From Nitrospinaceae bacterium (GTDB lineage Bacteria > Nitrospinota > Nitrospinia > Nitrospinales > Nitrospinaceae): a stretch of 64,000 nt of DNA. The notes under the pieces are model-generated. The model was not told the origin of the DNA, ran no database searches, and worked only from the letters and a program-made list of their open reading frames with translations. The stretch is taken from NCBI GenBank assembly GCA_965223665.1, contig OZ245011.1, positions 2,112,001 through 2,176,000 on the forward strand, written 5' to 3'. This document shows positions 19,611 to 64,000 of the stretch, piece after piece. The position numbers were made by a program, and so were the translations under genes. The stretch's first letter is position 1. Each line of letters begins with the position of its first letter.

Positions 19611-19985
19611 CTAAGATTCTTTTTTGAGGATTTGGAGGATTTGGTCCCACTGTTTGCGAAACTCGGCATCAAGGCGTGCATGTTCGTTGTCCAGGTGACG
19701 CTGTTGAAAAAATTCCACCTGATTTTTGAGCGCAGCCATTTTTTCCGAATTCTTCTGCACAATCTCAGAATTCTTGCGGGTCAATTCCTGCAACGTTCGC
19801 ACCTGCTCTTTCACACCGCTGATAATGACCTGCGACGTGATCAGTGTCGACCCGCCCCAACCCACTAATCCCAAAAATGCAATTGTAAGAATTTCTCCAA
19901 TCTTTCGACTGCTGATTCCGCCACCGTTACCATTTGGTGCAGCAACTCCACGATCACATGATACATCATTGATCCTGTCTCCCAT
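19611..19985 (-). CDS. Small single-TM coiled-coil protein after the tail fibre (possible phage lysis/accessory gene)
   Basis: One TM helix plus coiled coil; position at the end of the structural module. Confidence 0.55.
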   Translation of the reverse strand: MGDRINDVSCDRGVAAPNGNGGGISSRKIGEILTIAFLGLVGWGGSTLITSQVIISGVKEQVRTLQELTRKNSEIVQKNSEKMAALKNQVEFFQQRHLDNEHARLDAEFRKQWDQILQILKKES

Positions 19986-20081
19986 GAACCATCCTACTCC
20001 CAGTTAAAAATGATTCGCTATGATTCGAGAATCTTTTCCTGTTTTAACTTCCAGCATGGTTCGAGATTCCTTCCTTCTCCG

Positions 20082-23021
20082 TTAAGAAACTATCGCTCTA
20101 TCTTGAACGCGCAACCAATTCGTCCCATCACTGAATGCTACGGTTGCTCCACCCGTTTCATCCGAAACATAAATAAGCCCCGAAGTGGTAGAGGCTGAAG
20201 GTAATGTGGCCACGGTATACTCGGGCAAATCGACATACTGCGAGGAGTAAGAGGTTCCTATTATTCCTCGATCGGTTACCCGTCGCCAATTGGTCCCGTC
20301 GCTGAATGCCACAGTTGCCCCTCCGACATCGTCAGAAACATGGATATAACGTCCAGCTGTTTTGGACATCGCATTCGCGCTGGATACTGTATGAACCGGC
20401 ATGGTTAGGTATTGATCCTGATTGGGTTCATTAATGACAGGAACTGTTTTTCGGCCTCCATCAGTTTGAGAAAAGGCAATGGCTCCCTTACCACCATCGG
20501 CGTCATCGAGAAACCAGCACATGCCCTCCATTAGAGATGCCCACGGAAGGACCGAATCTGTAGTGGTTTCATCATTATGGGTTCTGGTTTTCCAAAATAA
20601 ATGAGTTAAACCATAAAACGTTCGTCTTGCCTCGGTATTGGATTCATTTGTGATTCCCAGCCCATTGCCCCAATGAAGTTTTCCGCGGTTAGAATCCACC
20701 GAACCTTCATTATGTCGCATCCCAAAAATACCTACATTTGCGCAAGTTTGAAAATCGACATAACAACTGCTGTCTTCTGCAACGTAACCATAAATCATGT
20801 TATTAATATTAACCTGGTTTGATTCCGGGCCGAATTTACTTTTTATATAAATCCCTGTATCACGGGTGAATGCATAATTGATATCTTCGTCTCCTGAAAC
20901 GGTAATAACCGTTTCGGGTGTAATGCTTCCGGAAACCACCGTAAAGTTACAGGAACCCGATCCAACACTGGTCAATTGAACTCTGACATTCGCGTTCAAA
21001 CCCAAATTAATTGTAAGGTGATCGCCCACTCCCAATTGAGTTGTGTCAAAGTCGGCTCCATTGGAATCAATGCTGGAAGCATTTACATCCACAGAAGTGG
21101 GTTCAGCTAAAAACAAAGGATTGGCCGGTGAGGACCCTGAGATAATACCTTCCGTCATGTGGTCGGCAGAATACCCAATGATTTGAAGAGTGTCGGCCTG
21201 ATGAACCACAATCCCTAAATGGCCCCATCGACTGGTGCAACCAATTAACCGGTGCCGGGTCGAACCTTTGTGCCGGCTGGGATCGGTGCTTCCCCAACTT
21301 GGATCATAAAAGAAAAATCCAACAGCAACCTCAATGGTTTTCACGTTTTCAATGTAATCCCAATAACTTCCCTCGGTGGTTCCCGCGACCACTACACCCA
21401 CGCTGGCATTAACAACCAGGATGTCTCTCAGAGTGTTGTGCACTCCATAGCTTGTAGAATTTTCACCGGATACTGTTAAGCTGTTCCAGGCTATGGTTTC
21501 ATTAGCCGCTACATTTGCTACCGTGAGGGTTCTACGATCTGAAGAAAGAGCCGTCGAAACATAAGCGAGATCATTCGTTCCACCAGCAGTCCCGGAAATA
21601 TCGTAAGTGTCTCCAATTTCTCCTAACCAATAACTTCCGGAAGGCAGGGTGATAGTATTTGCCGTGCTGTCAAAAGTGACATTCGGGTTTTGCCCCGGAG
21701 TAATCGCGGCGGGCCAGAAATCTCCATTGGTTTGAAGGCTGGGAGGAACCAGACCCACACCAATCATATTTTTTGCATAATCCCGTCGATCGGTTTCCAT
21801 ATCAATCCCAATTCCCTGAACCGTCGTCTGGGCGGTGTTGATCCGAATCATCATCATATCCGAGGTCGGGTCTTTGGGTTTTAATATCGTATTGTGTTCT
21901 CCACCTCCCACAATACGAACAAATTTACTGGTGACTTGGGCAATGGTTTCAAAATTCATTTCATCTACATGAATCCCAACCTTTAAGATAGTACCGTTTG
22001 CATCCGGCCACTTATCGATCCAGGTCACCCCATCCAGATAATAGGTTCCGGGTGGTATGTAAACCACGCCGCCGGTTAACATACAGTCATTGATCGCCTG
22101 CTGAATTCCAACTGTAGCATCATGTGCTGGGTTATTAATTTGGACATTATAGGGAGCTTCCGTCACGTTATAGAACTGAGCGCCCAAACTTCCACCGCCT
22201 CCCCCGCCGCTGGCGTTGATGGTGATGTCGTCCGCATTATTATCGATGGTGACGTTACTCCCTCCGATGATGCTTTTAATCGGCGTGTCCGATCCGACTT
22301 TGGACTTCACCAGCCCGGCACCTGACCCGCTATTGGAGTTTGTGTTGATCTCAGCGGTCGTATTGACCGTCACCTCGCTGGTGTCGTCACTGACGTTGAT
22401 CAGGTTACCGCCCTGAATGGTTTTCATCTCAAAATCGACACCCGATTTTTGTTTAAAGACCTGACCCGTTCCGGTTCCCACATTGGACATGGTGTTTTGC
22501 TCTCCCACCTCAACATCACTCGCCACAGCAGGATCTCCGTTCGAATCAAACATGAGAAACTTATCCGCACGCAGCGTTTTTGTCGGAAGCTCGGTATTGG
22601 AACTTCCATCGGACACCGGTATCGTGACGGAACGTCCTGCTTTTTCAAAAGCGCGTCGTGCCAGTTGTGTGTTTTTGTCCAATGCGTTTTCGACGACCTG
22701 CGGATTGAAACCGCCACCGATGGTCAGGTCTTCCTGCTGAGTGAACGGCGGTTGATAAATGAGGTTCAACTTTTCGCCGCTGGGTAAAGGCGATCCTATG
22801 ACGGGATAGGTGAGAGTGCCTCCGGGATTCTGATCCTGGTCGGGATTCAACGTCAGCGAAAAATCCGAATCCAGCACTAACGTGTCATCATCGATACCCG
22901 CCGCGTTGGTATGAATGACCTGCGCTTTGGTTTTATCGACAATTTTTGTGGTGATGGGCCAGGACGTGGTAACCCCGTTGCCTAAAAAAGGACCGTCCTT
23001 AATATTCTCATTGGTGATCAT
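20082..23021 (-). CDS. Phage tail fibre/tailspike
   Basis: N-terminal adaptor (GPFLGNGVTTSWP...QQEDL..GGGF.P...E.ALDK); beta-helix entry DATVGIQQAIN..GGVVYIPPGTY; C-terminal SDxxGGATVAFSDGTNW repeats; start set at ATG 23021. Confidence 0.85.
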   Translation of the reverse strand: MITNENIKDGPFLGNGVTTSWPITTKIVDKTKAQVIHTNAAGIDDDTLVLDSDFSLTLNPDQDQNPGGTLTYPVIGSPLPSGEKLNLIYQPPFTQQEDLTIGGGFNPQVVENALDKNTQLARRAFEKAGRSVTIPVSDGSSNTELPTKTLRADKFLMFDSNGDPAVASDVEVGEQNTMSNVGTGTGQVFKQKSGVDFEMKTIQGGNLINVSDDTSEVTVNTTAEINTNSNSGSGAGLVKSKVGSDTPIKSIIGGSNVTIDNNADDITINASGGGGGGSLGAQFYNVTEAPYNVQINNPAHDATVGIQQAINDCMLTGGVVYIPPGTYYLDGVTWIDKWPDANGTILKVGIHVDEMNFETIAQVTSKFVRIVGGGEHNTILKPKDPTSDMMMIRINTAQTTVQGIGIDMETDRRDYAKNMIGVGLVPPSLQTNGDFWPAAITPGQNPNVTFDSTANTITLPSGSYWLGEIGDTYDISGTAGGTNDLAYVSTALSSDRRTLTVANVAANETIAWNSLTVSGENSTSYGVHNTLRDILVVNASVGVVVAGTTEGSYWDYIENVKTIEVAVGFFFYDPSWGSTDPSRHKGSTRHRLIGCTSRWGHLGIVVHQADTLQIIGYSADHMTEGIISGSSPANPLFLAEPTSVDVNASSIDSNGADFDTTQLGVGDHLTINLGLNANVRVQLTSVGSGSCNFTVVSGSITPETVITVSGDEDINYAFTRDTGIYIKSKFGPESNQVNINNMIYGYVAEDSSCYVDFQTCANVGIFGMRHNEGSVDSNRGKLHWGNGLGITNESNTEARRTFYGLTHLFWKTRTHNDETTTDSVLPWASLMEGMCWFLDDADGGKGAIAFSQTDGGRKTVPVINEPNQDQYLTMPVHTVSSANAMSKTAGRYIHVSDDVGGATVAFSDGTNWRRVTDRGIIGTSYSSQYVDLPEYTVATLPSASTTSGLIYVSDETGGATVAFSDGTNWLRVQDRAIVS

Positions 23022-23037
23022 GTTCGACTCCACAAAC

Positions 23038-23162
23038 AAAAAAGCCCCGCTGCCACAGGTCCCTCCTGTGGAGCCGGGCGTCGCGTTTGCGGTGGTCCCA
23101 ACCAAGGCAATTATTTAGTTTTCATTCCTTATTATTATACCAAGTCCGGCCCCATTCGTCTG
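23038..23162 (-). promoter_or_regulatory. Promoter plus conserved attenuator-like leader, copy 1
   Basis: CAGACG-N17-TATAAT (extended TG), then GGGACCAC-CGC/GCG hairpin-GCCCGG..CGGGGC-T6. Confidence 0.7.
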
Positions 23163-23262
23163 CATAAATATTGTTCCACACTCAATTTTTCCAACCTGCG
23201 ATTGGGAGAGGAGAAACACATCAACTATCCTTTCACATATAATTTTGATACAATCGGTAGTT

Positions 23263-23742
23263 ATGAAACGAATCTTGTTTACATTGTTAATGGCTGTGGT
23301 TCTGTGGGGTGGGATTGCGGTGGAAGGTGTTCTGGCCGCGGATCGGAATTATATGGTGGAAAATTGCGAGCGGTCGGTCGCCTGGCCGGAGATATTACGG
23401 ATTATCCGTTGGCACGCTCCTGAGCTCAAAGAATTCATTGAAAAAAATGTCAAGCCGACGCAAGAGAATCCTAAACTCACTGAAGAGGATCATAAGCAAG
23501 TCGAACAATTTGACAAAAACATTCAGTGGTACGTCTCCGAGTGCATTCTCTTGATGAAAGAGATCAATGTTTTGGTGAAAGCCGTGCATGATATAGACCC
23601 CGAGGAAACTTTTATAATTGGTTTTAACATTAAAAGGTCTTTAGTAATGTTAGATATTCCCTTTATTTACCATTACAATAAGAAATATGATTTCGTATTT
23701 TCCGTTAATTTTGCGCCGTTAACACCGGATAAAACTTTCTAA
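23263..23742 (+). CDS. ~160-aa exported protein family, copy 1 (putative immunity protein)
   Basis: Signal peptide, AADRNYxxENC, WYxSECxLLMKEIN; 38-nt convergent overlap with 23705. Confidence 0.85.
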   Translation: MKRILFTLLMAVVLWGGIAVEGVLAADRNYMVENCERSVAWPEILRIIRWHAPELKEFIEKNVKPTQENPKLTEEDHKQVEQFDKNIQWYVSECILLMKEINVLVKAVHDIDPEETFIIGFNIKRSLVMLDIPFIYHYNKKYDFVFSVNFAPLTPDKTF

Positions 23743-26700
23743 CAAAAACCATAACTTCTTTGGGCAAATATTTAATTACTTCAACAAAATGATCTTCTAA
23801 ACCCATTTTGTTATTATTAAATGCCGCTTTCCTTTGAGCTTTTTCAATTGCTTCTGGTTTAGAAACATAAGCAGCTAGAGCAAATAACAACGGATTCTTT
23901 GTGTCCTTGAACTGTGGCATTATATTTTTAAACAACCACCACATCCCAGCCTGAATGTTGGTTTCCTGATCCGTCAGGATTTTTTCCGGAGTCCAACCCA
24001 GTTTTTTATTCTCCTCATTCTCCGCAATCAACTTAGCGGTGGCCCGTGTAATTCCCATCGGGCCCATCCGCTTTGCTTCCGGTTTATCATTCGGATCGGT
24101 TGGGAACCCATTCTTCACCATGATGTTCATCACCTGCGCCATCTGATCGGTAGACATCGACACCGACTCCTGAAACCGCTCGGCAATTTGTAACACACTC
24201 GCCTGCCGCGCCTGCTCCGTCGAAAAGTCCAAAGGCGTCGCCTCGGCTATTTGCCCCGATTCAGTTCTCTGCTGATCCTGCCGCTTGCGCCGGATCAACG
24301 CATCGATCAATCGTTCCATATGAGGCTGAATCTTTTTATTAAACTTTTTCACGAGTCCTTCTTTATTTTTTTCCAACTCCTCCAGAGAAAATTCAGCATC
24401 CACCCGTTCGAGCACCCGAGTCACATTCTCCGGTTTGACGCCCGGCGCATACAGCATGGAATCCCCAATCTGATAATCCATCGCCAACCGCGGATTATTT
24501 TTCCACAGTTCCCGCATGTCTTCTGCATTGAGTCGTGTGAGTCCTGCAGCAAAACTATTTGAGGAAGCTTGTTCCACTTTGGGGTTTTGAATCGATTCTT
24601 GATCCGCCAGCATTTCCTCATTAAAACCCTTATGAATTTTTTCTCGGACTTTCTCGTTATAAAACCCGGGTTCTCTTAAATTTTTATAGATAAGTTCATG
24701 ATTCGCTTGCGCATTTTTATGCGACCCCGGTCGGCGCATGTTGACCAGCACCTCTGCCATTTGAGTCCACCCCGGGTCCTTTCCGGTTTCCCTTAAGATT
24801 TTACCGATAATGTCGAATGTCGTTTGCGGTAACCCGATCAGTTGATCTAAAGTAATTGTATAGAATTTGGATGCATCTTCATCTTTCTTAGTCGGATTAT
24901 GCAACGCCGTGGGAAGCCCAACCAAAACATAAATTTCTTTCGGATCTTTCCCTTCCAGATCATCCGCCGAAACCCATTTGCCTCGGTAATGGAGCTTATC
25001 TTTCATCCGACCTCGGATCAGGGAGTTTTCTATTTTCGGACTCGGTGTGGTTCCCTTGAACAATTTAAATTTCAGGATATCTTTGTTATATGCCGATACC
25101 ATGGTATTCAGACTTTTATCATTTATTTTGAGGTTTTCATTTTTCCTGAGAGCTTTAAACTTTTCCAGGTTTTGTAATTGAGCTTCCTCCAGGGGCGGCG
25201 TGTCTAAAGGAACCACGATGCCGGGACCGGAGGAAGAAGAGGAAGAGGAAACAGAGGGACGTTTTCGAGGATCCGGTGTTTGAGCGGCCAGGATACTTCT
25301 GTCCCACAATATCTCCCGTTGGGGCGTGTTTGCTTTAACTCCAATATCGGCAATTTCTTCGCCAGTTAACCTTCTTCCCAACTCCTTTTCCTTTTTCATG
25401 ATATCTTCAATGACCGCAAACACATAGAAATCCTGGTAATCCGCTTCAATCTCTTCCGACTTTATCTGCTGCAAAATGGTAGACACTTCCTCTTTTTCTT
25501 GTTCATACGAGGCACGGAGTTCGTCGATATTAGGAACCTCTTCTGTCTTTGATAGTTTTTCTGCTTTATAAAGGTCGTTGGCCGCTTTTCCAAAACGTGA
25601 TAAAAAAGTGACAATGGAAGGAGGGGCCCCGCGTTCCTCTAAATGGAAATTCGTGTTGGCCAGCCTTTCAAAGCCCAAAGGGTTGGAGGAAACCGCTCCT
25701 CTCAGAAGATCCGCCCAACTTTTGCTGCGATTAAGTTCGATTAAACCGCCGGTGAGGTCTTCTTCCGACGGTTCCCTCGAAGCAAATGGGGAAAACGAAC
25801 CATCGTCCACCGTTAATTTAAATTGACCTTCCTGAGAAGATTCCTCCCCAAACCGATAGCCCGCTCTATCCTCCCATCTTTGGATTAACAATTCCTGTGT
25901 TTTACTGTCCAGAGCCAGCCATTGATCCAGTTTGGTAATTTCCGGTAATGGCACTGGAGTTTCCCCCTTATCAATGAATTGCCGGATATAAACAGAATTT
26001 TCATATTGCGTTTCCATTTTTTTCAGGGTTTCTTCTCGATCTTTATAGGCCATAAAACTTTGCGCCGCTTGCCGTATGTTAGTATTCGGCTCATCGGTCA
26101 ATGCCCGAATTTGCAAATCTTTCGGCAACGAAAAAATCTCGTTGGCCAACGCCTCCCCCGCTTCCAATTCATATTGTCGTTCGATCCTTGCTTCTAATAC
26201 CGCAGTGTCCGTTTCCCCAAACTCCTTTTGATGTGTCGTGAAATACTCCCGTGCCTCCCTGGCATGGCCGGTCTTTAACAGACGATCGATCACCGTCAGG
26301 TTCACCGTACTTAACACATGCTGCCATTCCCGGTTTTCACGTTCCTCCGTCCAACCGAGCAGTCCGGCAAAATGTTCCACCGACAAAAACTCATCGTTTC
26401 AATCTGCTCCTCACCCAACCGGGCCACCAGGGGAGCTACCGCTTCCGATCCCTTACCGGGAATGACTGTGGGATTGCTCTTTAAGTTATCTAAAATTTTC
26501 TGAAACTTTTCTTGGGCCGAGAAACTATATTCATTGTTACTGTCCGGAAAGACTTTTAAAATCATCGGATCGGTTTTTCGTCGCAACTTGAGCGAATCCA
26601 GTCGCGGCATTTTCAGGTGCTGTTCCATAATATTGCGGAGGGTGATGGGTTGATCCATTTCCCGCAATTGTTTTCCGAAATGCCAGAGGCGCGGGCCATG

Positions 26701-26837
26701 AGACTTCCTTCCTGTTTTAAACTTTCTACCGTTTCGTTTTCTGTGTTGGCTTTCAGGGTGGATTCATCCACCGGATTGTCCTGCGATAGCTTGGCACTGT
26801 TTTGACCGGTTTGTTGTTTTCTTATTTTTATTCCCAT
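23705..26837 (-). pseudogene. Internal virion (ejection)-like protein with SLT-like C-terminus; 5' part split by two frameshifts
   Basis: ORFs 26613-26837 (MGIKIRKQ, like the start at 52280), 26311-26667 and 23705-26386 (similar to the 44393 protein); tip GPMGIT..NIQAG.WWL..ALAAY. The 893-aa part may still be expressed. Confidence 0.65.
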
Positions 26838-27139
26838 AAGGTTTCAGTTCTCAATTGGTTTTTGGTTTGAAAATATGAAGAGATTGGGAGTTTTCTTCCC
26901 TGAAGAATGGTGTAAAATCCGATTGGATCCCTTATTTTTTTGCTGGAGGTCAATTACCCCGGCCCGGCCCCTGGCCGGCGGAACCATAATATTCGGGACT
27001 CTCTTTTTACCGGAAAAATTTCCCGTTTCAAATGGCCTATATATATAATGAACAAACTCGTGATTTTTTTCTGGTTTAGCGGCAAATTGAGTCGTTTTCT
27101 GCCTCTTTCCGACGCCAAATTCGGGTAAAAAATCGAGTT

Positions 27140-27631
27140 TTAAGCTGATTTTTCCAGGAAGAGATGCTCTGCACCAGAAGCTGGGATTTCTTTTGTGGTT
27201 ATATACCCCTTCGTGGCGTACCCCAGTTTCTCGTAAATTCCCAGGGTACGCTTCGCTTCCACTTCGGTACTGATTCCCAATGTGATGACGCGTGCCCCGT
27301 TGTCTTCGGCCCACTGTTCAAATACTTTGATCAGTCGAACGCCCAGCGATCCGCCGCGGTGCTCCGGCACAACGTACACTGCCAAATCGGAGGCCATCAA
27401 ATCGTATCCGAAATAATGTTCGGTTATAAAACCAATCATCATCCCCACCGCTTCACCTTCCTTTTCAGCAATAAAGATACTGCCGGAGGGAATCAAAGCT
27501 TCTCCCAACTGTCTGCACTTGTCCTCACTGAAATCCATCATGCGAAAACGCGGACTTTCCTGATGCATGCGTTTGCCCATTTCCATGAGCATCGGAATGT
27601 CGTCCAACGTCGCCTGCCGTATATTAGCCAC
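27140..27631 (-). CDS. GNAT acetyltransferase of the phage structural module
   Basis: IRQATLDDIP, YVVPEHRGG, YEKLGY; GTG start overlaps the tail tubular B stop. Confidence 0.85.
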   Translation of the reverse strand: MANIRQATLDDIPMLMEMGKRMHQESPRFRMMDFSEDKCRQLGEALIPSGSIFIAEKEGEAVGMMIGFITEHYFGYDLMASDLAVYVVPEHRGGSLGVRLIKVFEQWAEDNGARVITLGISTEVEAKRTLGIYEKLGYATKGYITTKEIPASGAEHLFLEKSA

Positions 27632-30404: not shown

Positions 30405-30405
30405 G

Positions 30406-31023: not shown

Positions 31024-31228
31024 AATGGGGTTCCTTTATGAAAAGTGTCTCTTTAACAATGCGAGAGTTCAGATTTTATACGGATACTTCCCGTTGGATG
31101 GATCAATGTTTTCATTCACAGGAAGTGGATGCCTGCTTTTGATTCAAGGGTCGTGGACTGTTTTGTGGTGGGTGAATTAAAAGGATGGATATGCTCTATT
31201 TCTGGAAAATCATTCCAAATCCACACAC

Positions 31229-31351
31229 AAAAAAGCCCCGCTGCCGTAGATAACTTCTACAGAGCCGGGCGTCGCATTGCGGTGGTCCCAGAGAAACCAG
31301 AAATTAGTTTCCATTCCTAATTATTATACCAAGTCAGAACGCATTCGTCTG
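31229..31351 (-). promoter_or_regulatory. Promoter plus conserved attenuator-like leader, copy 2
   Basis: Closely similar to 23038-23162 with a different inner hairpin. Confidence 0.7.
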
Positions 31352-31372
31352 CAAAAAAATTTTAATCACTAA

Positions 31373-32869: not shown

Positions 32870-32910
32870 TATTTCTTCCTATTGAGATCTTTGCGTCAGT
32901 TAGAAAAAAT

Positions 32911-43910: not shown

Positions 43911-43947
43911 TTCCCAATCAGAATTATTTTTGATACAATTGGTAGTT

Positions 43948-53200: not shown

Positions 53201-53590
53201 TTAATAACTGTTCTGGTTACCACCGGTGATACCCGCGGTTACGGTATAGGTCGGACTGGTGCCGCCGAGGGTATAGTTCAAGCGGACGTAGCGTTCATCG
53301 GTACCATGGGGCACATAGTTCATACTCAATCGGTCCCCGGCAACTCCACCCGACACGCTGGTCGATTCCACAACGGTGGCTGAAGAAAATGAATCGTTGT
53401 CATCAACTTCCAAATCTACTTGCAGGGTTGGGGAAGTTCCACCAGCATCCACCGTCAGCTGAATCACAATAGGAATGGGTACACCGACGCCGATATCCCG
53501 GGCTACACCTAAATCCAATACATTTGCAGAGGCACCGCTAACGGTTAACGCCTGGTCCTCTGAAAAGATCGCTTCTTTGTCTAATATCAT
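53201..53590 (-). CDS. Capsid cement/decoration protein (Bbp16-like)
   Basis: MILDKEAIFSEDQAL..S.NVLDLG..RYVRLNYT..TVTAGI. Confidence 0.85.
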   Translation of the reverse strand: MILDKEAIFSEDQALTVSGASANVLDLGVARDIGVGVPIPIVIQLTVDAGGTSPTLQVDLEVDDNDSFSSATVVESTSVSGGVAGDRLSMNYVPHGTDERYVRLNYTLGGTSPTYTVTAGITGGNQNSY

Positions 53591-54888: not shown

Positions 54889-55629
54889 TTAATAGGTGTT
54901 TCCTTTTTCGTTAGGGTAAAGGATTTCGGCGGGACTTTTCGCCTGGTTGCCCGTGCGGGAACCGGATACATATCCATCCTCGCTGAGACCTTTACCGACA
55001 CGATACAGAAAGCGAATGAACTCCGGATGGTCACCTATGCCTAACTCCTCAGACAGCACTTGCAGTTGAGACCACGGTCGGCCTCTTTCATCCACATAGG
55101 GTTTGCCATGAGGACTCATCAAGGGCTTGCCGTTTTTATCCAAGGCGGGCGGGCTGAACCGGTCCATCGCTTGCTTAGCGACTCCCAGCTTTCCCGATAA
55201 ATTATCGCCGCCGATTTCGCTATCGGCTTTGACGGTATCTATCCACTGAGTTCGCTCCTGTTCAAAAGCATGATCTTCCATTTCCATCAAACGGTCCTGG
55301 ACATTGAAAAAATAATCAACGCCCGCTTGCGTTTGCTGTTGCGTTAAGCCATAACTGTTGGCCAACTCGGAAATTTCATTAAAATGCTCCTGATTCATTT
55401 CCACCCCTTCGGGAATATTAAACGGCTCGTAATAATCGAGCGTTCCTTCTTTTCCATGAAAGTCTTCCTTCTCCCGGGGGGAATTGTCTCCGGCGGGTTG
55501 AGTGTCGCCGGTGTCGTGGCTGCCTCCATCTTCTTTGTACAAGATAGAAGCGGCCGTTTCATCACCTACCGATTGAGTGTTATTTTGTTCGGTCGGATAC
55601 AGTATTTCGGCTGTCATAAAATTCTCCAT
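54889..55629 (-). CDS. Capsid scaffolding protein
   Basis: Acidic; LTQQQTQ, D.EIGG, G.HPEFIRFLYRVGKGLSED, C-terminal AEILYP. Confidence 0.8.
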   Translation of the reverse strand: MENFMTAEILYPTEQNNTQSVGDETAASILYKEDGGSHDTGDTQPAGDNSPREKEDFHGKEGTLDYYEPFNIPEGVEMNQEHFNEISELANSYGLTQQQTQAGVDYFFNVQDRLMEMEDHAFEQERTQWIDTVKADSEIGGDNLSGKLGVAKQAMDRFSPPALDKNGKPLMSPHGKPYVDERGRPWSQLQVLSEELGIGDHPEFIRFLYRVGKGLSEDGYVSGSRTGNQAKSPAEILYPNEKGNTY

Positions 55630-55909
55630 ACAATTTAAATAATTCCATCGGATCTACTTCCGAGATTTCATCTTGTATTTTCAAACCGACATTGCGCATG
55701 CCCTCGTTCAGGTACGTGGTGGAATTGCCGGTGAACGTGGTTTTGAACATGTAGCAACTTTCTAAAATTCTTAGAAGGAAGCGCCGGCCCGCAGGCAATT
55801 TCAACAGTTCCTTGATGTCTTCCTGAGCTCGGGCCTTCCGTAGCGCGGATTGTTTTTCTTCTTCCCGCCGCAGTCGTTCCCGTTCTTCCATGTAACTTTT
55901 GTTGGGCAT
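55580..55909 (-). CDS. Bbp19-like phage protein
   Basis: D...L...AGRRFL.RIL..C......F.GNS...NEG.RNVGL. Confidence 0.8.
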   Translation of the reverse strand: MPNKSYMEERERLRREEEKQSALRKARAQEDIKELLKLPAGRRFLLRILESCYMFKTTFTGNSTTYLNEGMRNVGLKIQDEISEVDPMELFKLYGEFYDSRNTVSDRTK

Positions 55910-55910
55910 A

Positions 55911-57569
55911 CTAATTTCCGGTTAACATTTGTTTAATATCGGTCAACGCATTGGCACCTCCGGTGTCGGTCTCCGAAAGTGTCTTCGCTGCGTCGGCCGT
56001 TTCCATCATGCCCTGCATCTGCTGCATCATGGCTTGTTGTTGATCTTCTTTCTTACGAATGAGCGCGACTTGTTCATTGGCGACGATCACATGGGAAGGC
56101 ACCCCATACATATCCGCCAATTCGTCGACCAGAACATCAAAATTAACTTTGCCGGTTGCACGTGGAAAAAGCTGACTGATAGAACCCACGGAACCCAGCA
56201 AACGCTCAATCCCGTTGATGCCTACCGACTTCTGCGCCTGGGCCAACATGCCGACGAACTCAACGGTTAGATCCATGCCGGACATTTCCTGCGGAATCGG
56301 TGGGAACAAATCATTCTCCATGGCCAACTCAAAAGCGATGTCTATGAGCGGACCACCGATTTCGTTCTGCCCGCGCTCCAGCACCGGTCCCAGGATCAGC
56401 AACTTCTCGGAATGTTTTTCCTCGATTTCACGAGCCGTGACTTGACGCCGATCCGACAGCGCGATCATTTGAAACAAATCGGTAAAGAAAGTCGTTCGGA
56501 TTCGATCCCGAATATCCTGAATGTCCAGGAGGATAGGATTCAGATCAACGTTCACTTCGAACGCGGTTCGAATCCCACCTGCCGGATGGTTCTGGTCATA
56601 AAAGGTTTTACCACCGGGCAGGACATCGCTCGAATCCTTCAACGAAGAAGGTATCTGCAACGGCGGATCGGTTTTATAATCGATGGCATTGCTTTTCTTC
56701 AACTGGTCGAACTGCAACTGTTGAATACTGCCCAACGCCTGCATGCCGGGACCGTGGCCGTAAATATCCTGACCTCGGGTGACCCATCGGGGAACCAGAC
56801 CGGGAAAATTACGATACCCGCTCTCCCGCAAAAACTTGTCCTTCTCGTTGGTCTTGGCTTCATAGTGCACCGACATGAAGGGCATGTTTTTATTGTCATG
56901 CTTTTTATGATCGCGTTCTCGACGCGGCTCGATGGCATGGATCACCGTCACCCAATCGTCATAGCGACCGTTGTTGTAACGATCCTTGACGCGCTGGCTG
57001 ACGTTTTCCAATCCATATTCCTGAACCAACGCCGCCACCTGCATATCAAACTCGCGGTAGAGCGTATCCACTTCGCCGCGATTATTGTTGGCGATGTAAT
57101 ACTCTCCCACGGTTTGAGGATGGAGGCGGATGACATCTTTAAAGTCGCGTGTCACCACGGCGCTGGCGGTGCCGAACGCACCGCGCTCTTCATACATTCC
57201 ATGAAGAACGCGATACGTATTGGATCCGTTGAATATGGCCATCAAAACGTCGCGAGCCGCATCCATCCATTGACGGATGGGCCCGAACTTTGCACGATCT
57301 TTGTCCGGAGAACCCAGGCGGAACCAATTCTTTGCAGGGCTGGTTTCTCCGGCCATTTCCCCCGCAGCCAACACTCCTAACGCATGACTCGCAGTTTCAT
57401 CGATAATCTCGTTGAAGTCCCGTTTCTTGTTCCGTTCGGTGGTTAAGAACCGACCGCTCACCGGAAGAAGGTGCGAGCTGATACTGCGGTACACACTGTC
57501 GAAGGTCGACCGTTCCGTCTTCATCGATTTCAATCGTCTGTTATGGTACTCTCGTTTTGATTCTGCCAT
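55911..57569 (-). CDS. Portal / head-to-tail connector
   Basis: TSPAKNWFRL, VDTLYREF, PRW....YG.GPGM.AL, TAREIEEK..EKL.ILGPVLER. Confidence 0.93.
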   Translation of the reverse strand: MAESKREYHNRRLKSMKTERSTFDSVYRSISSHLLPVSGRFLTTERNKKRDFNEIIDETASHALGVLAAGEMAGETSPAKNWFRLGSPDKDRAKFGPIRQWMDAARDVLMAIFNGSNTYRVLHGMYEERGAFGTASAVVTRDFKDVIRLHPQTVGEYYIANNNRGEVDTLYREFDMQVAALVQEYGLENVSQRVKDRYNNGRYDDWVTVIHAIEPRRERDHKKHDNKNMPFMSVHYEAKTNEKDKFLRESGYRNFPGLVPRWVTRGQDIYGHGPGMQALGSIQQLQFDQLKKSNAIDYKTDPPLQIPSSLKDSSDVLPGGKTFYDQNHPAGGIRTAFEVNVDLNPILLDIQDIRDRIRTTFFTDLFQMIALSDRRQVTAREIEEKHSEKLLILGPVLERGQNEIGGPLIDIAFELAMENDLFPPIPQEMSGMDLTVEFVGMLAQAQKSVGINGIERLLGSVGSISQLFPRATGKVNFDVLVDELADMYGVPSHVIVANEQVALIRKKEDQQQAMMQQMQGMMETADAAKTLSETDTGGANALTDIKQMLTGN

Positions 57570-57776: not shown

Positions 57777-58136
57777 TTATCTCCTTGATTTTAAGAGCGA
57801 GGAATCGCTCGGGTTAGTATTGGGATTATCCATCCCGGTAGGACTACTGAGTAACGTGGGCCGAGGCGTTGCCAGAGACCGGGCCCGCGCTTTACGTTTC
57901 TTTAATACGGCTTGCACATCCGGATTCGGAGTTTTATTTTGATTTTGGGTCGCACCGACAATATTTTGAAACGATGAATTATTTCCGATTTGAGGACCTC
58001 TTACCACATCGACAACGCTTTTCACCTGAGAAAACGGGTCCAAAGGCATTCCTGTTGCGCGGCTGACTTCGGAAAGCCCACCCGTGGCGATTCCTGCGCC
58101 CACTCTAAAAATTGTTCCAAACGTGCCACCACACAT
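57777..58136 (-). CDS. Paralog of the MCGG small protein
   Basis: MCGG start, basic patch plus RPTLLS; AGGAG RBS. Confidence 0.7.
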   Translation of the reverse strand: MCGGTFGTIFRVGAGIATGGLSEVSRATGMPLDPFSQVKSVVDVVRGPQIGNNSSFQNIVGATQNQNKTPNPDVQAVLKKRKARARSLATPRPTLLSSPTGMDNPNTNPSDSSLLKSRR

Positions 58137-58251: not shown

Positions 58252-58731
58252 ATGAGACCGATCTTGATGACATTTGTAGTTGTTGGCTTGCTATTAGGCA
58301 GCGCCTCTTTGGGAAGTGCCGCTGATCAGAATTACATTATCGAGAACTGCGATCGCGAACAACTTTGGGCGGAAATTTTGAAGGATATTCGTTGGCGCGC
58401 CCCGGAAGAAACCAAGTTCATTGAAGAACATATTCAACCAACCAAAAATCGCCCCAAGCTGAGTGAAAAAGATTACCAAGACATCGAGAAAATGGATAAA
58501 GACATTCGCTGGTATGCCTCCGAATGCATTTTGCTAATGAAAGAAATCAATAAATTTTTGGGGGCGATTCATTCTAAAAACCCCAATATGGGTTCGCGGT
58601 TAGCCTTTACAATTGATGGGACCTTAGTTAAATTTGAAATCCCATTTGATAGATCCTTCAATCGACAAAATAACCTTAAACCTTTCTTTGAATTTAAATA
58701 TTACCTTTATATGCCTTTCGGAAAGCTTTAA
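58252..58731 (+). CDS. ~160-aa exported protein family, copy 4
   Basis: AADQNYIIENC, WYASECILLMKEIN. Confidence 0.85.
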   Translation: MRPILMTFVVVGLLLGSASLGSAADQNYIIENCDREQLWAEILKDIRWRAPEETKFIEEHIQPTKNRPKLSEKDYQDIEKMDKDIRWYASECILLMKEINKFLGAIHSKNPNMGSRLAFTIDGTLVKFEIPFDRSFNRQNNLKPFFEFKYYLYMPFGKL

Positions 58732-58808
58732 GATATTCTGCCGGGGATAAGTTATTCAGGCCTGGTTATTTAGTCTTGATTGATATCTGTGTGATATAAA
58801 ATTTGGTT

Positions 58809-59288
58809 ATGAGACCGATCTTAATTTTATTAATAGTTACCGGCTTACTTATGAGTGTGCCACAAACCGGAAACGCTGCCGATCAGAATTACATTATTGA
58901 AAACTGCGACCGGGAATGGCTTTGGGCTGAAATTTTGAAAGACATTCGCTGGCGAGCACCGGAAGAATCTAAGTTTATTGAGGAACATATTAAACCCACC
59001 AAAAATCGCCCAAAGCTTACAGAAAAGGACTTCCGGGATATCGATAAAATGGACAAAGAAATCCGTTGGTATGCCTCCGAATGTATTTTACTGATGAAAG
59101 AAATTAATGAATTTTTGGGGGCTATTCATTCTAAAAATTCCCGAATGGGATCACGATTAGCATTTACAATTGATGGCACTTTAAATAAGTACGATATTCC
59201 TTTTTTCAGGGATTTTAATAGAGAAAACAATCTAAAACCATTTTTCAATTTTAGGTATTATCTTTATAAGCCTTTCGGAAAGCTTTGA
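58809..59288 (+). CDS. ~160-aa exported protein family, copy 5
   Basis: Close paralog of copy 4. Confidence 0.85.
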   Translation: MRPILILLIVTGLLMSVPQTGNAADQNYIIENCDREWLWAEILKDIRWRAPEESKFIEEHIKPTKNRPKLTEKDFRDIDKMDKEIRWYASECILLMKEINEFLGAIHSKNSRMGSRLAFTIDGTLNKYDIPFFRDFNRENNLKPFFNFRYYLYKPFGKL

Positions 59289-60187
59289 GATATTCTGCCG
59301 GGGATAAATCGTTCTTATTTGGTCGTGTATTCATGAATGTAAGCTTTTAAACTTCATTAATTTTATCTCCTGCTCCCTTACCCAGAGTATTTTCGGCTTC
59401 CTCTCTCGCTTTTTCTACATCATTCGCCCCTATTTTGTACTCCAATACCATGAACCCGATCCGATCATCCACATATTTATAACGTTTCCAACCATCAAAA
59501 AATAATGCTTGTCCTGCAATGATATTGGCTTCATTTTTATCGCGAATTTCTTTGGAGGTGAAACCCGTATTTAGATTTTTGGCGATTAAATCTGCTGTTT
59601 TTTTAACTATTTGCATCAATCCGGAAGCTGTGGAATTTGGATTTTTTACTTTTTGCCTGAAACTGGATTCAATTTGAATTAACGATTTTGTGATTCGACT
59701 CGCTTCTTGAATAGGAACCGGATAACTAAATTTCTTATGAGTTTTAGCGGTAATTAAATCCCACCGAATGTTTGACCTCCTTCACCGTACCGAATTTATA
59801 ATTGGGATTAAATTTTCCCTGCTGAACGGGTGGCTGGCTCGGACCTTTCGGTGCATTGACGATGGCCTGCTGCATTGCCCAGTCCATTTGCGGGTTGCCG
59901 GTGGCCAAGGAGTCCGGACTGCCGGGTAGCGGTTTGTTGGGATCCTCGGTGTTGTATAAAATACCGGGATCAATCGATCTCTCCGAGGCTGGTAGACTTT
60001 CCTTAGCCGTGAAGTCTTGACTCAATAAAGTCGGTCTTCGATTTCTTCGTCTTCCTTTTTTAGTGCCAACCCGGCGGTCATCCTTTTTTCCGGAGCCATC
60101 TCCGTAAAGGATTTCCGCCATCTCTTCCCATCTTTCCCGCTCTTGCAGATTGGATCTGCCATATCCGCTTAAATTAATTCTTCCCAT
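59251..60187 (-). pseudogene. Lytic transglycosylase (SLT)-tipped protein with a frameshift (~59760) and an in-frame stop (59347)
   Basis: Reconstructed LIQIESSFRQKVKNPNSTASGLMQI..NIIAG; frame continues past TAA to ..EYLKAFRKAYKDNT* at 59251. Confidence 0.8.
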
Positions 60188-60929: not shown

Positions 60930-61144
60930 CGATGGCCCATGTATTCCCTCTTTTTTAAAGAGGGTCAGGGTGATTCACCGCCTGGGGTTTTAAGAATAAG
61001 GAAAAATCCCCCCAGCCCGCAGGCCAACGCCTGCCAGTAAAATTCATTTTCGGAAATGTTTTGCCATCAAGATATCTCCAGAAACTTTACGAATATTCCT
61101 GTTGCACCCAATCGCTGGATTGGGAAAGAGGGAACGCATTGATC
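60930..61144. repeat. Two REP-like repeats in opposite orientation
   Basis: CCCTCTTTTTTAAAGAGGGTCAGGGTGATTCACC and AATCCCCCCAGCC...GGAAAGAGGGAACGCAT. Confidence 0.65.
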
Positions 61145-61269: not shown

Positions 61270-61752
61270 ATGAAGCGAATCTTGTTTACATTGTTAATGG
61301 CTGTGGTTCTAATTGGTGGGATTGTGGTGGATGGTGTGCTGGCAGCCGACCGGGACTACAAAATCAAAAACTGCCAACGCACTAAAGTGTGGCCGGAGAT
61401 ATTGGATCATATTCGTTTAGGCAATCCAGAGTTAAAAGATTTTATTGAAAAAAACATCAAACCGACTCGGGAAGATCCATTATTGAGCAAGGACGACTTT
61501 CAAGAAATTGAACGGTTGGATAAAAACATTCAGTGGTATGCCGCCGAGTGTGTCCTTCTAATGAAGGAAATAAATATCTTAGTCAAAGCAGTTCATGAAG
61601 TAGATCCTGAAGAAACATTTTTTATTGCCAATCCAATTTATAGAATACTTGGAAAACTTAAAATTCCTGTTATAGTAAACTCCAAGGGAGTTAATGATCT
61701 TGCTGTTTTCTCTTTTAACTTCTCTCCTTTTTCTCCGGAAGAAACTTATTAA
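61270..61752 (+). CDS. ~160-aa exported protein family, copy 6
   Basis: Same motifs; 38-nt overlap with 61715. Confidence 0.85.
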   Translation: MKRILFTLLMAVVLIGGIVVDGVLAADRDYKIKNCQRTKVWPEILDHIRLGNPELKDFIEKNIKPTREDPLLSKDDFQEIERLDKNIQWYAAECVLLMKEINILVKAVHEVDPEETFFIANPIYRILGKLKIPVIVNSKGVNDLAVFSFNFSPFSPEETY

Positions 61753-62448
61753 CCATTTCTTTAATTTCATTTGGTATTTTTTGCAGGACCAATTCAAAGT
61801 TTATTTTTTTTCCTACATTTTGTCCATTTACATTCTTTAAAATCCGGTCCATGGGTTTTTCTCCAAGAAAAAAATTAATTAAAGCAAACCCAAAAGGATT
61901 GTCCGTATTGTTATTATATAGAGGCTTATAATATTTGGTTAACAACCAAACCGCTCCCTCGATGTTTTCGAAGTTGTTGTTGAGGATGTCTTTCTCTGAA
62001 TAGCCCAGGTCACTTTTGGTGGCGATGATCTTCGCCTGCCGTGGCGTGAGCGCCATCGGCCCACGAGGAATCTCCTTATCCCGCACTTTCCATTTCACTT
62101 CCGACCGGTCCATCGCTAACTGCTCGAACAATTTCCGCCTTTCTCGAGTGACGGGTTTCGATTGATATGAACTCCCACCCAAAGACACATCCACCGCCTC
62201 GGCCCCTGCGAAAACCCTGCTTCTATTGCTTTGAACACCGAATCGAGATCGGTATTTTTTGAAGAAGAGAAAGCAAACACGTTTTGGATCGCTTCTGAGG
62301 TTTTACTTTTCCATTTTGCCGACCCGGTTCGCGGCAGGGTATAGCGCATCTCCATTATATTTTGATAGGTGATCGATTTGCCCTGCTCCATTAATCGGAA
62401 ACCGATGGCTTCCAAACCATCCTCCGAAAGGTGCAGCCCTTCACCCAC
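61715..62448 (-). pseudogene. Orphan C-terminal cassette of an ejection protein (SLT-like tip), frameshifted
   Basis: 62116-62448 AIGFRL...ITYQNIME aligns to AIGEKL...LTMQNIAE of 44393; 61715-62194 GPMALT..NIEGAVWLL..FAL. Confidence 0.7.
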
Positions 62449-62563
62449 TGCATTTATATTTTTTTCTATAGATCGAATTTCATTTTGCCGCCGATTCGAT
62501 ATTTTAAATAAATGAAAGAAAATTAATTTACCTCCAATCGTTAGATTGATATAATTACTGGTT

Positions 62564-63046
62564 ATGAAACGAATCTTTATTACAATTATAATGGCTGTGG
62601 TTCTATACGGTGGGATTGCGGTGGAATGTGCGGTGGCGGCAGACCGGAACTACAAAATCGAAAACTGCAACCGCAAAAAAGTCTGGACGGAGGTTTTTGA
62701 TTATATTAATTGGAATAATCAGAATCTTAAAGTATTTATAGAAAAGAATATAAAACCTACCAAAGAGGATCCAAAATTAACTGAAGATGACTACAAGCAA
62801 ATTGAACAACTGGATAAAAATATTCAGTGGTTTGCATCTGAATGCGTTCTATTAATGAAGGAAATCAATGTTTTGATAAAGGCAGTACATGAAGTTGATC
62901 CAGAACAAACTTTTTATATTGCTAATATAATTGAAAAAAATCTAAATAAGGAACAAATTCCATCATTGTGGAACTCTAAAGGTGTAAATGATCTAGCGGT
63001 TTTCTCTTTTAACTTTGCTCCCTTTTCTCCGGAAAAAAATTTTTAA
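62564..63046 (+). CDS. ~160-aa exported protein family, copy 7
   Basis: Same motifs; 38-nt overlap with 63009. Confidence 0.85.
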   Translation: MKRIFITIIMAVVLYGGIAVECAVAADRNYKIENCNRKKVWTEVFDYINWNNQNLKVFIEKNIKPTKEDPKLTEDDYKQIEQLDKNIQWFASECVLLMKEINVLIKAVHEVDPEQTFYIANIIEKNLNKEQIPSLWNSKGVNDLAVFSFNFAPFSPEKNF

Positions 63047-64000
63047 TTAATCTTTTATAGTTTTCTGGTGCTGTCTCGATAACTAAATCTAGTTTTAATT
63101 TTGTTCCTTTTGCACTTCCTTCCACCTTTTTCTGAGCTTCACTCATTAATTTATCCCCAACCAAATAATGCATTAACGCAAAGCCCATTGGATTATCGGT
63201 TACATCCCTGTAAAAAAGTAAATAATAATTTACCAATAGCCACGTGGCTCCTGCAATATTTTTTCTCGGGTCCGTTAAAATATCATCTACCGAATAATTC
63301 AAACCACTTTCTTTAGCAATTATTTCAGCCTGCCTTCGTGTCAAGCCCATTACTCCCTGTGGAATTTGTTCGTCTCGGACTCCCCATTTTATACGGGAAG
63401 ATTCGTTGGCCATTTTTAAGAGTACAGTTTTCCATGGCCCAAGGTTCACTCCCGTATTGTCTTTATTGCGACTCAATCCTTCGTTGATGACTGCCGCCAC
63501 AGAATTCGCATCTCTCAAATCAAACTTGGCAGGTTGCGGCTGCGCCTTGTTTCCTCGCTGCGCGAACAGTTCCGGAGCGCGGCCTTGTTGTTTATCGCGG
63601 AGGATGTTATCGAGTAAACTTTCTACTTTCCGGACCGCCTTCTCGGAAACTTGTTTTCTTACATCCTTCAGAATCTCACTTTTACTCTGTTTCAATTGTT
63701 CTGCCGACATGCGAAAAGCGCTTTCTACCGGGAACGTTATGTTCTTCAACTGATTGCCGTCAATCATCACATAATCGTTCCGCGCAAACTTCCCCTGCTT
63801 TTCATCAAACACATCACGGAACCCGGCCCAGGCCGCTGCATCCAACTTCCCTATGATCACTTCCGAGTTCTGTTGTGTTCGTGGATCACCGGGATTCAAA
63901 TTACGCTGCTTTCCCTGCTCAATGAGCTTCTTAAGTTTCTGCGAAAATCCCTGACCGCGCACAATCCCCTGTGGAGTGTATGTTTCATCGATAACTTCGC
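63009..64000 (-). CDS. Ejection-protein-like gene with SLT-like tip (probably runs off the window)
   Basis: RDKQQGRAPELFAQ shared with 44393; MANESS..GVMGLT..NIAGATWLL. Confidence 0.75.
   Translation of the reverse strand, partial: EVIDETYTPQGIVRGQGFSQKLKKLIEQGKQRNLNPGDPRTQQNSEVIIGKLDAAAWAGFRDVFDEKQGKFARNDYVMIDGNQLKNITFPVESAFRMSAEQLKQSKSEILKDVRKQVSEKAVRKVESLLDNILRDKQQGRAPELFAQRGNKAQPQPAKFDLRDANSVAAVINEGLSRNKDNTGVNLGPWKTVLLKMANESSRIKWGVRDEQIPQGVMGLTRRQAEIIAKESGLNYSVDDILTDPRKNIAGATWLLVNYYLLFYRDVTDNPMGFALMHYLVGDKLMSEAQKKVEGSAKGTKLKLDLVIETAPENYKRLIKNFFPEKREQS

Follow-up and report, generated by a model that had tools for sequence, protein, structure and literature searches.

What is encoded by a chromosomal locus in which the capsid and short-tail genes of a podovirus are intact and its ejection genes are multiplied? 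This question was raised by a stretch of 64,000 nucleotides from a Nitrospinaceae bacterium (hereafter the window, G000:C1:2112001-2176000; assembly of 4.35 Mb, 98.6% complete), in which a podovirus-like element starts at position 19611 and continues past the right end. Positions above 64000 are written as L002, to which 64000 is added to obtain the continued window coordinate. A previous sequence-only reading of the window had proposed a host-maintained capsid-plus-short-tail device delivering polymorphic effectors. The element was compared with its counterpart in a sister species of the same genus (G001; assembly 98% complete, 10 contigs) and with related phages. On balance, gene content and species comparison favored a domesticated particle locus of podovirus origin, in which polymorphic peptidoglycan effectors are combined with immunity genes.

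The virion module was found intact on the minus strand within 19611-64000 in Pfam and PHROGs scans (Table 1). It was of the BPP-1/epsilon15 type, since a PF12236 portal, a PF20911 GP7-type capsid protein, a Bbp16 cement protein and a gp14-like internal protein were all present. Tail adaptor and nozzle (phrog_394, phrog_376) were also encoded in G000, the nozzle match spanning positions 6-711 of the 712 of the phrog_376 profile. The virion gene classes named by the sequence-only reading were thus all recovered in place, arranged in blocks and split by a host-type operon. BPP-1, Carin1 and similar podoviruses were the nearest phages (portal 42-48%, capsid up to 65%, nozzle 35-42% identity), and the fibre N-terminus was 38% identical to BPP-1 bbp9. 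Only ejection genes, SLT cassettes and immunity-like genes were multiplied, as the earlier reading had noted for the ejection genes (B and B'; A, A' and A''). Portal, capsid, terminase, tail and fibre were single copy, a single PF12236 portal being present in the whole G000 genome, and an origin by simple tandem prophages was consequently rejected. Acquisition of the tail block from a second, unrelated phage was also rejected because its best matches were the same phages as those of the portal.

The window had been described as devoid of terminase, integrase and replication genes, with SLT cassettes upstream of the portal, where a terminase usually lies. This was correct for the window, and the cassettes do occupy this place, but the terminase is displaced rather than absent: TerS and TerL were located 4.6-6.6 kb past the window end. 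TerL was 52.5-54.7% identical to the 15 phage records listed, seven of which annotate a large terminase there; it was detected via PHROGs and tblastn only, a Terminase_6N family search of the genome returning nothing. The TerL-to-portal interval (10.5 kb) contained a second B-A pair (B' and A') and further cassettes. Upstream of TerS were three intact class I SLT genes (see below) and five immunity-like genes, followed by a fibre-like protein of 705 aa, made of repeated beta-rich units and with hypothetical proteins as homologues (two with discoidin-type domains), and by seven small conserved open reading frames (ORFs; L002:14768-17427) reaching approximately L002:17427. The conserved block extended from 19611 to approximately 81430, that is 61.8 kb, or 50.6 kb without the insert described below; the G001 element was 50.6 kb long.

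The modules needed for an autonomous phage life were looked for in the element, its flanks and the genome. Neither an integrase nor modules for replication, repression or lysis turned up as far as 20 kb from either end of the element. An integrase family search gave 13 matches in the genome, of which the nearest were weak and approximately 40 kb past the right end (C1:2234267 and C1:2236573). Twenty BPP-1 and Carin1 proteins, mostly for replication, recombination, lysis and repression, were used as queries; 17 had no match in the assembly and the other three gave weak integrase or SLT-domain matches elsewhere in it. No tRNA gene was present in the window, in the 40 kb past the right end or in the 20 kb before the left end, and no att repeat was defined for the element. 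Short repeats at 32.9, 43.4, 43.9, 60.9, 76.1-76.4 and 81.7 kb were considered as att sites and rejected, being genome-wide repetitive extragenic palindromic (REP)-like hairpins. NCBIfam yielded nothing for proteins lacking other family matches. Integrase, replication, repressor, lysis and att features of an autonomous prophage were therefore all missing from the element, and of the terminase, replication genes and att sites by which a complete prophage would have continued beyond the window only the terminase appeared. Since TerS and TerL are present and conserved (dN/dS, the ratio of non-synonymous to synonymous substitution rates, of 0.07 and 0.04), the particle most likely still packages DNA, which makes a protein-only device less likely than a DNA-filled one.

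When 41 genomes were searched, the capsid protein was encountered in two, namely G000 and the congeneric G001, and in none of 19 other genomes of the same family or 20 of the same order. The G001 locus was colinear, with the same flanking genes on both sides. The cross-species core set comprised eight genes (TerS, TerL, portal, Bbp19-like, scaffold, capsid, cement and gp14-like), all eight of full length in both species. The portal was 99.8% identical (551 of 552 aa) in spite of a dS of 0.35, with a dN/dS of 0.002; values for the others were 0.020 (cement), 0.037 (capsid), 0.044 (TerL), 0.062 (gp14-like), 0.068 (TerS), 0.095 (Bbp19-like) and 0.097 (scaffold), and that of the 705-aa protein was 0.074. 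For comparison, 12 flank genes had dS values of 0.34-1.1 and dN/dS values of 0.05-0.29. Host REP-like palindromic repeats (66 BLAST hits genome-wide in G000) were inserted in both copies at partly different sites, one of them, between the cement and gp14-like genes, in G001 only. Same flanks, purifying selection and invasion of both copies by REP-like repeats indicate that the element is neither strain-specific nor decaying, which would have spoken against the earlier reading. Moreover, unusual losses and rearrangements are common to the two copies; loss of autonomy therefore predates the species split, and selection would have acted on an already non-autonomous element. Close relatives of the portal were not found in IMG/VR, and JGI metagenomes gave one fragment of 46% identity.

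Two classes of SLT-type effector candidates were distinguished. Class I proteins are 300-345 aa long and consist of a near-invariant, basic N-terminal region of 115 aa followed by a variable SLT domain; three intact copies and a broken one were present in G000 and at least five copies in G001. Among nine aligned class I proteins, identity of the SLT parts fell to 27-45%, the N-terminal region remaining nearly invariant. The SLT domain scored 34.8-47.8 bits against Pfam (cut-off 21.3 bits), Glu171 was invariant and the IESSF catalytic motif aligned to MltC and Slt70 in profile matches; judging from these features, the class I domain is a canonical family 1 lytic transglycosylase. The 115-aa region may represent a virion-incorporation signal. 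Class II proteins (A type) are gp16-like and about 1100 aa long, with N-terminal 320-400 aa that are 52-79% identical and a remainder that is 20-30% identical. Their C-terminus was homologous to the class I SLT domain (hhalign 99.6%, E 1e-23) and lacked a conserved catalytic Glu. Protein A scored 17.5 bits, below the SLT cut-off. The orphan cassette A'' aligned to residues 217-1111 of a 1111-aa A-type protein of G001 (40%), and a 490-aa orphan of G001 was 90% identical to the C-terminus of full-length A'. The cassette arrays were host-like in composition (39-42% GC, tetranucleotide correlation 0.94-0.97). A conserved N-terminal part combined with variable C-terminal SLT domains corresponds to the layout of polymorphic toxins. 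Disruptions were confined to cassettes (A', the class I gene at 59347-60187, and the fragments at 61715-62448, 43111-43353 and 26311-26667); the core genes being undamaged in both species, the earlier claim that damage is limited to cargo or tip cassettes was upheld. Outside the main locus, G001 also contained SLT cassette and immunity units and a B fragment, in L019 (contig_9) and L020 (C13:179616-200074); L019, an unplaced contig, joins TPR genes to SLT and immunity cassettes.

Twelve intact paralogous immunity-like (imm) genes of about 160 codons were identified, all on the plus strand and within the locus, and none elsewhere in G000; an additional remnant was located near 60.0-60.4 kb. By inspection, all 12 products had a signal-peptide-like N-terminus (basic, hydrophobic, Ala-x-Ala), and Cys35 and Cys94 were invariant. 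Eight of the 12 converge on an SLT-type C-terminus or its remnant with an overlap of 38-44 nt, and the other four are extra tandem copies. Immunity-like genes are thus found beside putative toxin C-termini and arrays of orphan cassettes, in convergent orientation, and the cassettes behave as the polymorphic effector set that had been suggested. Immunity genes of pore-forming colicins have a layout resembling this convergent orientation, which may allow the inhibitors to be made constitutively with the virion genes silent. The family appears almost confined to this genus: 21 proteins were found among 5.8 billion clusters, their only sources being G000, G001 and three short contigs; when 1.84 billion representatives were searched with a profile, six members and two weak matches in giant proteins were obtained; and none occurred in 50,697 phage records. 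An AlphaFold model (pLDDT 83.9) was a helical bundle with a hairpin and had no informative match in the PDB (best Foldseek E 1.8; best VIA Z 5.8, to generic helical bundles). Weak PADLOC matches (Cas2d, 21.7 bits, in one of three imm proteins; LeoC, 18.4 bits) were dismissed as likely due to chance, and ESM Atlas matches (scores 0.77-0.83) were uninformative.

Identity matrices of 17 SLT C-termini and their neighboring imm proteins were strongly correlated (Mantel r 0.81, none of 5000 permutations as high), but SLT and imm genes duplicate as units and this correlation therefore shows co-inheritance and is no proof of co-evolution. One class I pair was modelled as a complex (residues 118-300 of the product of L002:9689-10591 with residues 27-159 of that of L002:9247-9726). 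The three runs gave ipSAE values of 0.84, 0.00 and 0.86 (median 0.84), the best of three controls reaching 0.00; of solved complexes, 58 of 80 attained the ipSAE mark used, and of mismatched pairs, two of 110. Contact agreement between the runs was at least 0%, and pLDDT of the partners was 76 or higher. The predicted interface lies on variable segments of the SLT domain (residues 229-236 and 252-271). For this class I pair, the model supports binding of the imm protein to the neighboring SLT domain.

These data can be assembled into a scenario. The element would be the chromosomally fixed remnant, in a Nitrospinaceae genus, of a temperate podovirus of BPP-1/epsilon15 type, having retained TerS, TerL, portal, scaffold, capsid, cement, tail adaptor, nozzle, internal (ejection) proteins and fibres and lost integration, replication, lysogeny and recognizable lysis genes. 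As purifying selection has lasted since before the species split, particles are probably still made, and the retained terminase suggests heads filled with DNA. Ejected proteins would have turned into a two-class polymorphic effector family, each variant C-terminus forming a cassette with a convergent, separately transcribed imm gene for a predicted SLT binder. Every cell would make the periplasmic inhibitors, and a lysing subpopulation would release particles. In a target devoid of the cognate inhibitor, the ejected SLT domain might open the peptidoglycan, the ejection channel form, and effectors and DNA be delivered, or the cell be killed; in kin, the inhibitor would block wall penetration. 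Orphan cassettes and extra immunity genes may constitute both a recombination reservoir and a record of an arms race. In its strongest version, which we put forward tentatively and with some doubt, this would be the first domesticated podovirus, a host-owned capsid and short tail whose ejected proteins serve as a polymorphic peptidoglycan-cutting arsenal, with a new family of periplasmic inhibitors deciding which neighbors are penetrable, in other words a contact-independent system of kin discrimination or killing.

Several observations weigh against this scenario. The element is carried by two genomes only. Tail tubular proteins A and B were found nowhere in the G001 assembly by protein and family searches, so that a working short tail is encoded in one of the two genomes; judging from gene content, at least one of the two copies is unable to assemble a tail of the usual podovirus kind. 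The tail block of G000 stands away from its canonical position and lacks a G001 orthologue from which selection could be estimated. The earlier proposal of a host-maintained capsid-plus-short-tail device can consequently be retained as regards the fixed site in two species, purifying selection and lack of integration, replication and lysogeny genes, and less so as regards the tail and a protein-only cargo. Core genes have a GC content of 47-52% and a GC3 of 0.55-0.61, equal in both species, compared with 38.3% GC for the genome, a composition that is, on these values, unlike full amelioration. Median dS of the element (approximately 0.44) was somewhat below that of most flank genes, and a later exchange of the element between the species may explain this. 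No lysis cassette or regulator was identified in the element. Concerning the effectors, protein A displays neither an evident Glu-Ser catalytic motif nor an evident catalytic Glu. For the modelled class I pair, one run out of three gave an ipSAE of 0.00, and the catalytic Glu171 lies outside the predicted interface.

A first alternative is a defective prophage kept for superinfection exclusion. Selection would then act on the array of Spackle-like periplasmic inhibitors, by which the wall-cutting ejection proteins of related incoming phages would be blocked. The SLT cassettes would remain from the phage side of this arms race, either as leftovers or as a reservoir, and no useful particles would be made. 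The excess of immunity-like genes (12, versus four intact deliverable effectors in G000), the persistence of orphan imm genes beside decayed SLT remnants (such as 42666 with 43111-43353) and the lack of tail genes in G001 are all in line with this explanation. It also has a precedent in T4 Spackle, reported as a periplasmic inhibitor of a virion lysozyme (PMC7677548). However, unused virion genes should decay, and at the dS values concerned (0.35-0.87) drift would break genes of 1-1.7 kb, whereas all eight core genes have kept their full length under dN/dS values of 0.002-0.10. Nor was a close circulating target phage found in IMG/VR, JGI metagenomes or phage records, in which this group is poorly sampled. 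Exclusion is therefore regarded as unlikely, although it is the alternative that survives best.

A strict gene transfer agent (GTA) would also account for TerS and TerL being kept under selection, and for virion-only genes being chromosome-fixed and under purifying selection in two species. Random host DNA would be moved between kin, SLT diversity would adapt the penetration of the wall, and re-entry into producers would be kept low by the inhibitors. The size of the element (50.6-61.8 kb), compared with 38.7-47.6 kb for the genomes of the listed portal, capsid and tail relatives, may moreover exceed head capacity. Kin-borne inhibitors would nevertheless shut out the very recipients that a GTA is supposed to benefit. 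Arrays of effector and immunity genes with orphan cassettes are the mark of antagonism and not of sharing, and neither competence-type uptake genes nor a host regulator were linked to the locus. We consider this possibility improbable.

Still lower credit can be given to a temperate phage that remains autonomous, with integration, replication and regulatory genes that have become unrecognizable. The seven small conserved ORFs (L002:14768-17427) and the 705-aa protein, located upstream of the cassettes and without assigned function, might harbor such genes, and core gene composition is phage-like; but the largest of these ORFs is the fibre-like protein, the others encode 75-142 aa, and no recombinase of any searched family is nearby. 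In addition, host REP-like repeats and an 11-kb host operon lie inside the element, and gene order departs from the canonical one at two points when compared with both related phages inspected in this respect, BPP-1 and Carin1. Finally, a satellite-like, capsid-forming island borrowing the tails of a helper phage, at least in G001, where capsid, terminase, ejection proteins and fibre are kept and tail adaptor and nozzle are missing, is hardly credible given that no integrase, primase/replication or helper-sensing genes were found, unlike in capsid-forming satellites of the phage-inducible chromosomal island (PICI) type, that neither genome contains a helper podovirus (G000 has a single PF12236 portal and G001 lacks tail genes) and that G000 encodes its own tail.

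Table 1. Features of the podovirus-derived element and of its insert, ordered by position
Feature	Position	Strand	Remarks
124-aa protein	19611-19985	-	One hydrophobic segment and coiled-coil tail (sequence inspection)
Tail fibre	20082-23105	-	phrog_1640/5510 over residues 38-160
imm	23245-23742	+	Convergent with A'', 38-nt overlap
A'', class II orphan cassette, 893 aa	23705-26386	-	Lacks conserved N-terminal ~216 aa; SLT-like end
Class II fragment, 118 aa	26311-26667	-	55% identical to G001 A' residues 767-873
GNAT acetyltransferase	27140-27745	-	PF00583 4e-12, phrog_1249 1e-35
Tail tubular B / nozzle	27624-30404	-	phrog_376 8e-196; three E1_FCCH insert domains
Tail tubular A / adaptor	30406-31023	-	phrog_394 1e-39; 41% identity to BPP-1 bbp14
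Sigma-54 enhancer-binding protein	31373-32869	-	Divergent from lipid-type operon
Lipid-type operon, 9.3 kb	33303-42615	+	Pfam/NCBIfam
imm, orphan	42666-43148	+	Partner survives as remnant 43111-43353 (-)
SLT C-terminal remnant, 80 aa	43111-43353	-	50% identical to A residues 1026-1105
imm	43930-44430	+	Convergent with A, 38-nt overlap
A, class II, 1105 aa	44393-47710	-	Only intact full-length class II in G000
B, internal virion (ejection) protein, 1112 aa	48942-52280	-	phrog_6651, phrog_9880
T7 gp14-like internal virion protein	52344-52871	-	PF24072, phrog_418
Cement, Bbp16	53201-53590	-	PF21190
Major capsid protein, GP7-type	53645-54652	-	PF20911, 6e-130
Scaffold/protease-like	54889-55629	-	phrog_458
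Bbp19-like	55580-55909	-	Pfam/PHROGs
Portal	55911-57569	-	PF12236, E 4e-152
119-aa low-complexity basic protein	57777-58136	-	Upstream of portal; 90% identity to G001
imm, two in tandem	58252-58731, 58803-59288	+	
Broken class I gene, 147-aa and 90-aa pieces	59347-60187	-	Intact (309 aa) at same place in G001
imm	61270-61752	+	With SLT C-terminal fragments 61715-62448 (-)
SLT C-terminal fragments	61715-62448	-	Beside imm 61270-61752
imm	62564-63046	+	Second cassette unit of 61270-63046
A', class II	63009 to L002:2302	-	In-frame stops at codons 320 (TAA) and 513 (TAG); intact (1151 aa) in G001
B', 708 aa, paralogue of B	Beyond window, between TerL and portal		
TerL	L002:4649-6214		PHROGs, tblastn
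TerS	L002:6123-6647		Pfam Terminase_2, 2e-33
REP-like repeats in element	32880-33065, 43395-43470, 43840-43920, 60930-61000, L002:12060-12460, L002:17640-17740		Intergenic

Among the remaining genes of the element, the C-terminal 366 aa of B were 71% identical to those of the G001 protein. Only residues 1-382 of the fibre aligned with G001 (80.5%), its N-terminal attachment part being retained and its C-terminal part exchanged between the species. The GNAT gene has a counterpart on the BPP-1 gene map between TerL and portal. The leftmost conserved gene of the element encodes the 124-aa protein (G001 orthologue 83% identical, dN/dS 0.14); this protein had no family match in Pfam, PHROGs or NCBIfam scans and its features suggest a possible holin- or spanin-like protein. 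An RPTLL-type basic motif is common to the 119-aa basic protein and the N-terminal region of class I proteins. Between B and A, a non-coding tandem repeat was observed at 47802-48989 (477-bp unit, 2.5 copies, 82% matches, no ORF above 64 aa), kept in G001 at 78-80% (g1-coordinates 54988-56009). A 140-nt sequence was found at 23029-23172 and 31220-31361 (80% identical), preceding the fibre and tail adaptor genes; on the minus strand it contains a GC hairpin and a T-run resembling a terminator, and it may represent a regulatory element common to both genes or the scar of a recombination event. No Rfam family was matched in the window.

The virion module is split by an insert of 11.2 kb (31373-42615). 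Products of its lipid-type operon include a fatty-acid desaturase, a CarS-like protein, PPDK_N and PEP-utiliser domain proteins (together a split PPDK-like enzyme), a methyltransferase, an acyltransferase and a reductase-kinase fusion (NAD_binding_4+APH). The last gene (827 aa) had no counterpart in G001, and only a short match of 27% identity elsewhere in the genome. The insert has a GC content of 45%, compared with 38% for the genome, and resembles an island of horizontal origin that was inserted into the element; G001 has neither this operon nor the GNAT gene. A consensus -24/-12 promoter, one of 54 such sites in the 4.24-Mb chromosome, was located at 33247, before the operon. Being the sole such site from 15 to 90 kb and facing the lipid operon, it led us to reject the sigma-54 activator as a regulator of particle genes: the insert is a self-contained sigma-54 regulon and no part of the particle. 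Logan contigs from one study agreed with the assembly over 24001-43970. At the REP-like repeats or the 140-nt repeat, they gave only joints with short sides (22-47 nt), which were read as repeat artefacts and not as evidence of excision or deletion.

ORFs in the 20 kb on either side of the element were of host type (MbnB-like enzyme, CBM96 paralogues, GGDEF protein, two-component system, superoxide dismutase). To the left, about ten paralogous proteins of 360-480 aa with an N-terminal CBM96 domain were found (window 2-1183, 12899-15548; L004:10557-19415), with an MbnB/TglH-type enzyme for ribosomally synthesized and post-translationally modified peptides (RiPPs) near this cluster (L004:7915-9360); another CBM96 cluster stands beside the satellite cassette locus L020 of G001. 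Large TPR-repeat proteins (507-615 aa) are encoded on both flanks (window 1387-11175; L002:17871-19712). A TPR protein with a DUF900 alpha/beta-hydrolase domain (17990-19603) abuts the left end of the element, G001 having its N-terminal 148 aa only. At the same border, G001 alone carries an ImmA/IrrE-type peptidase-HTH gene and a DUF4411 gene (L009:607-2333). About 17 kb to the right of the element, genes for DUF6869, DUF4304 and HTH_3 proteins stand in a row (L003:14288-16374) and may be another immunity-type gene set.

Known phage-derived weapons, to our knowledge, derive from long tails. R- and F-type tailocins, extracellular contractile injection systems (eCIS) and Photorhabdus virulence cassettes (PVC) resemble a domesticated podovirus particle in being phage-derived, host-maintained and used against neighbors, but they are headless long-tail structures, whereas this locus has capsid, portal and terminase. 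Pfam and PHROGs scans of the locus turned up no sheath, tube, tape measure or baseplate, and the distinction from tailocins and eCIS drawn by the sequence-only reading was thereby confirmed. GTAs of the RcGTA type likewise have a chromosome-fixed, virion-only gene set with terminase, purifying selection and no self-replication, but they are devoid of effector-immunity arrays; the sequenced ones known to us are all siphovirus-like. Type VI secretion system (T6SS) peptidoglycan effectors have periplasmic immunity proteins, and Rhs and CdiA have arrays of orphan C-terminal cassettes downstream of the full-length gene. A periplasmic wall hydrolase with cognate exported immunity, and orphan cassette arrays, are common to these systems and the present locus; delivery would differ, relying here on a capsid and short tail, as does the convergent orientation of immunity genes that overlap the toxin 3' end.

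The relatives BPP-1 and Carin1, respectively, share with the element portal (47% and 42% identity), capsid (44% and 65%) and nozzle (about 40% and 37%), as well as matching cement, gp14-like and fibre N-terminal sequences and an SLT domain in the ejection protein (bbp11). Unlike the element, they have a size of 40.5-42.5 kb, single ejection genes, a terminase beside the portal, a tail directly after the head, and full replication, integration and lysis modules; the BPP-1 retroelement is not in the element either.

As an analogy, the closest published concept is the 'phage-capsid-like' polymorphic toxin system of MuF proteins. In two reports (PMC3482391, PMC5576092), MuF toxins are polymorphic, encoded beside portal and terminase genes of prophages or their remnants and predicted to be head-packed and injected; they were reported in temperate phages of Firmicutes. 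Variable C-terminal toxin domains and immunity genes are common to both systems. The carriers here are instead podovirus ejection proteins and a new 115-aa N-terminal region without a MuF domain (no phage head morphogenesis domain in Pfam scans at E <= 0.01), the putative toxin domain is a lytic transglycosylase whose site of action would be the periplasm, transcription of the immunity genes is convergent and their products are exported, and the element is non-autonomous and conserved between species. For the imm proteins, T4 Spackle is the closest functional analogue: it is reported to be a small periplasmic protein that binds and blocks the wall-cutting gp5 lysozyme of an incoming virion (PMC7677548). 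The likeness would be one of role, the imm product being a small protein with a signal-peptide-like N-terminus, predicted to bind a virion wall hydrolase; the differences are a lytic transglycosylase on an ejected podovirus protein as predicted target and 12 diversified, cassette-paired copies. In literature searches (supplements outside scope), neither a podovirus-derived GTA, tailocin or bacteriocin nor ejection-protein/immunity cassettes were found described. The locus has the appearance of a weapon or exclusion system of phage origin, of a hitherto undescribed kind.

The SLT domain and its 160-aa putative inhibitor, for which no fold match was obtained, form a directly testable pair. The computational idea of capsid-borne polymorphic toxins, formulated for MuF proteins, would be extended to a Gram-negative lineage of marine nitrite oxidizers, in which social and antagonistic interactions are essentially unstudied. 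If the proposed domestication is true, a host-maintained podovirus particle would represent a third architecture beside long-tail weapons and siphovirus-like GTAs, and a contact-independent system mechanistically distinct from tailocins, eCIS, T6SS and GTAs. It would also mean that the ejected proteins with which podoviruses cross the cell envelope are able to diversify into interchangeable effectors, matched by periplasmic immunity proteins.

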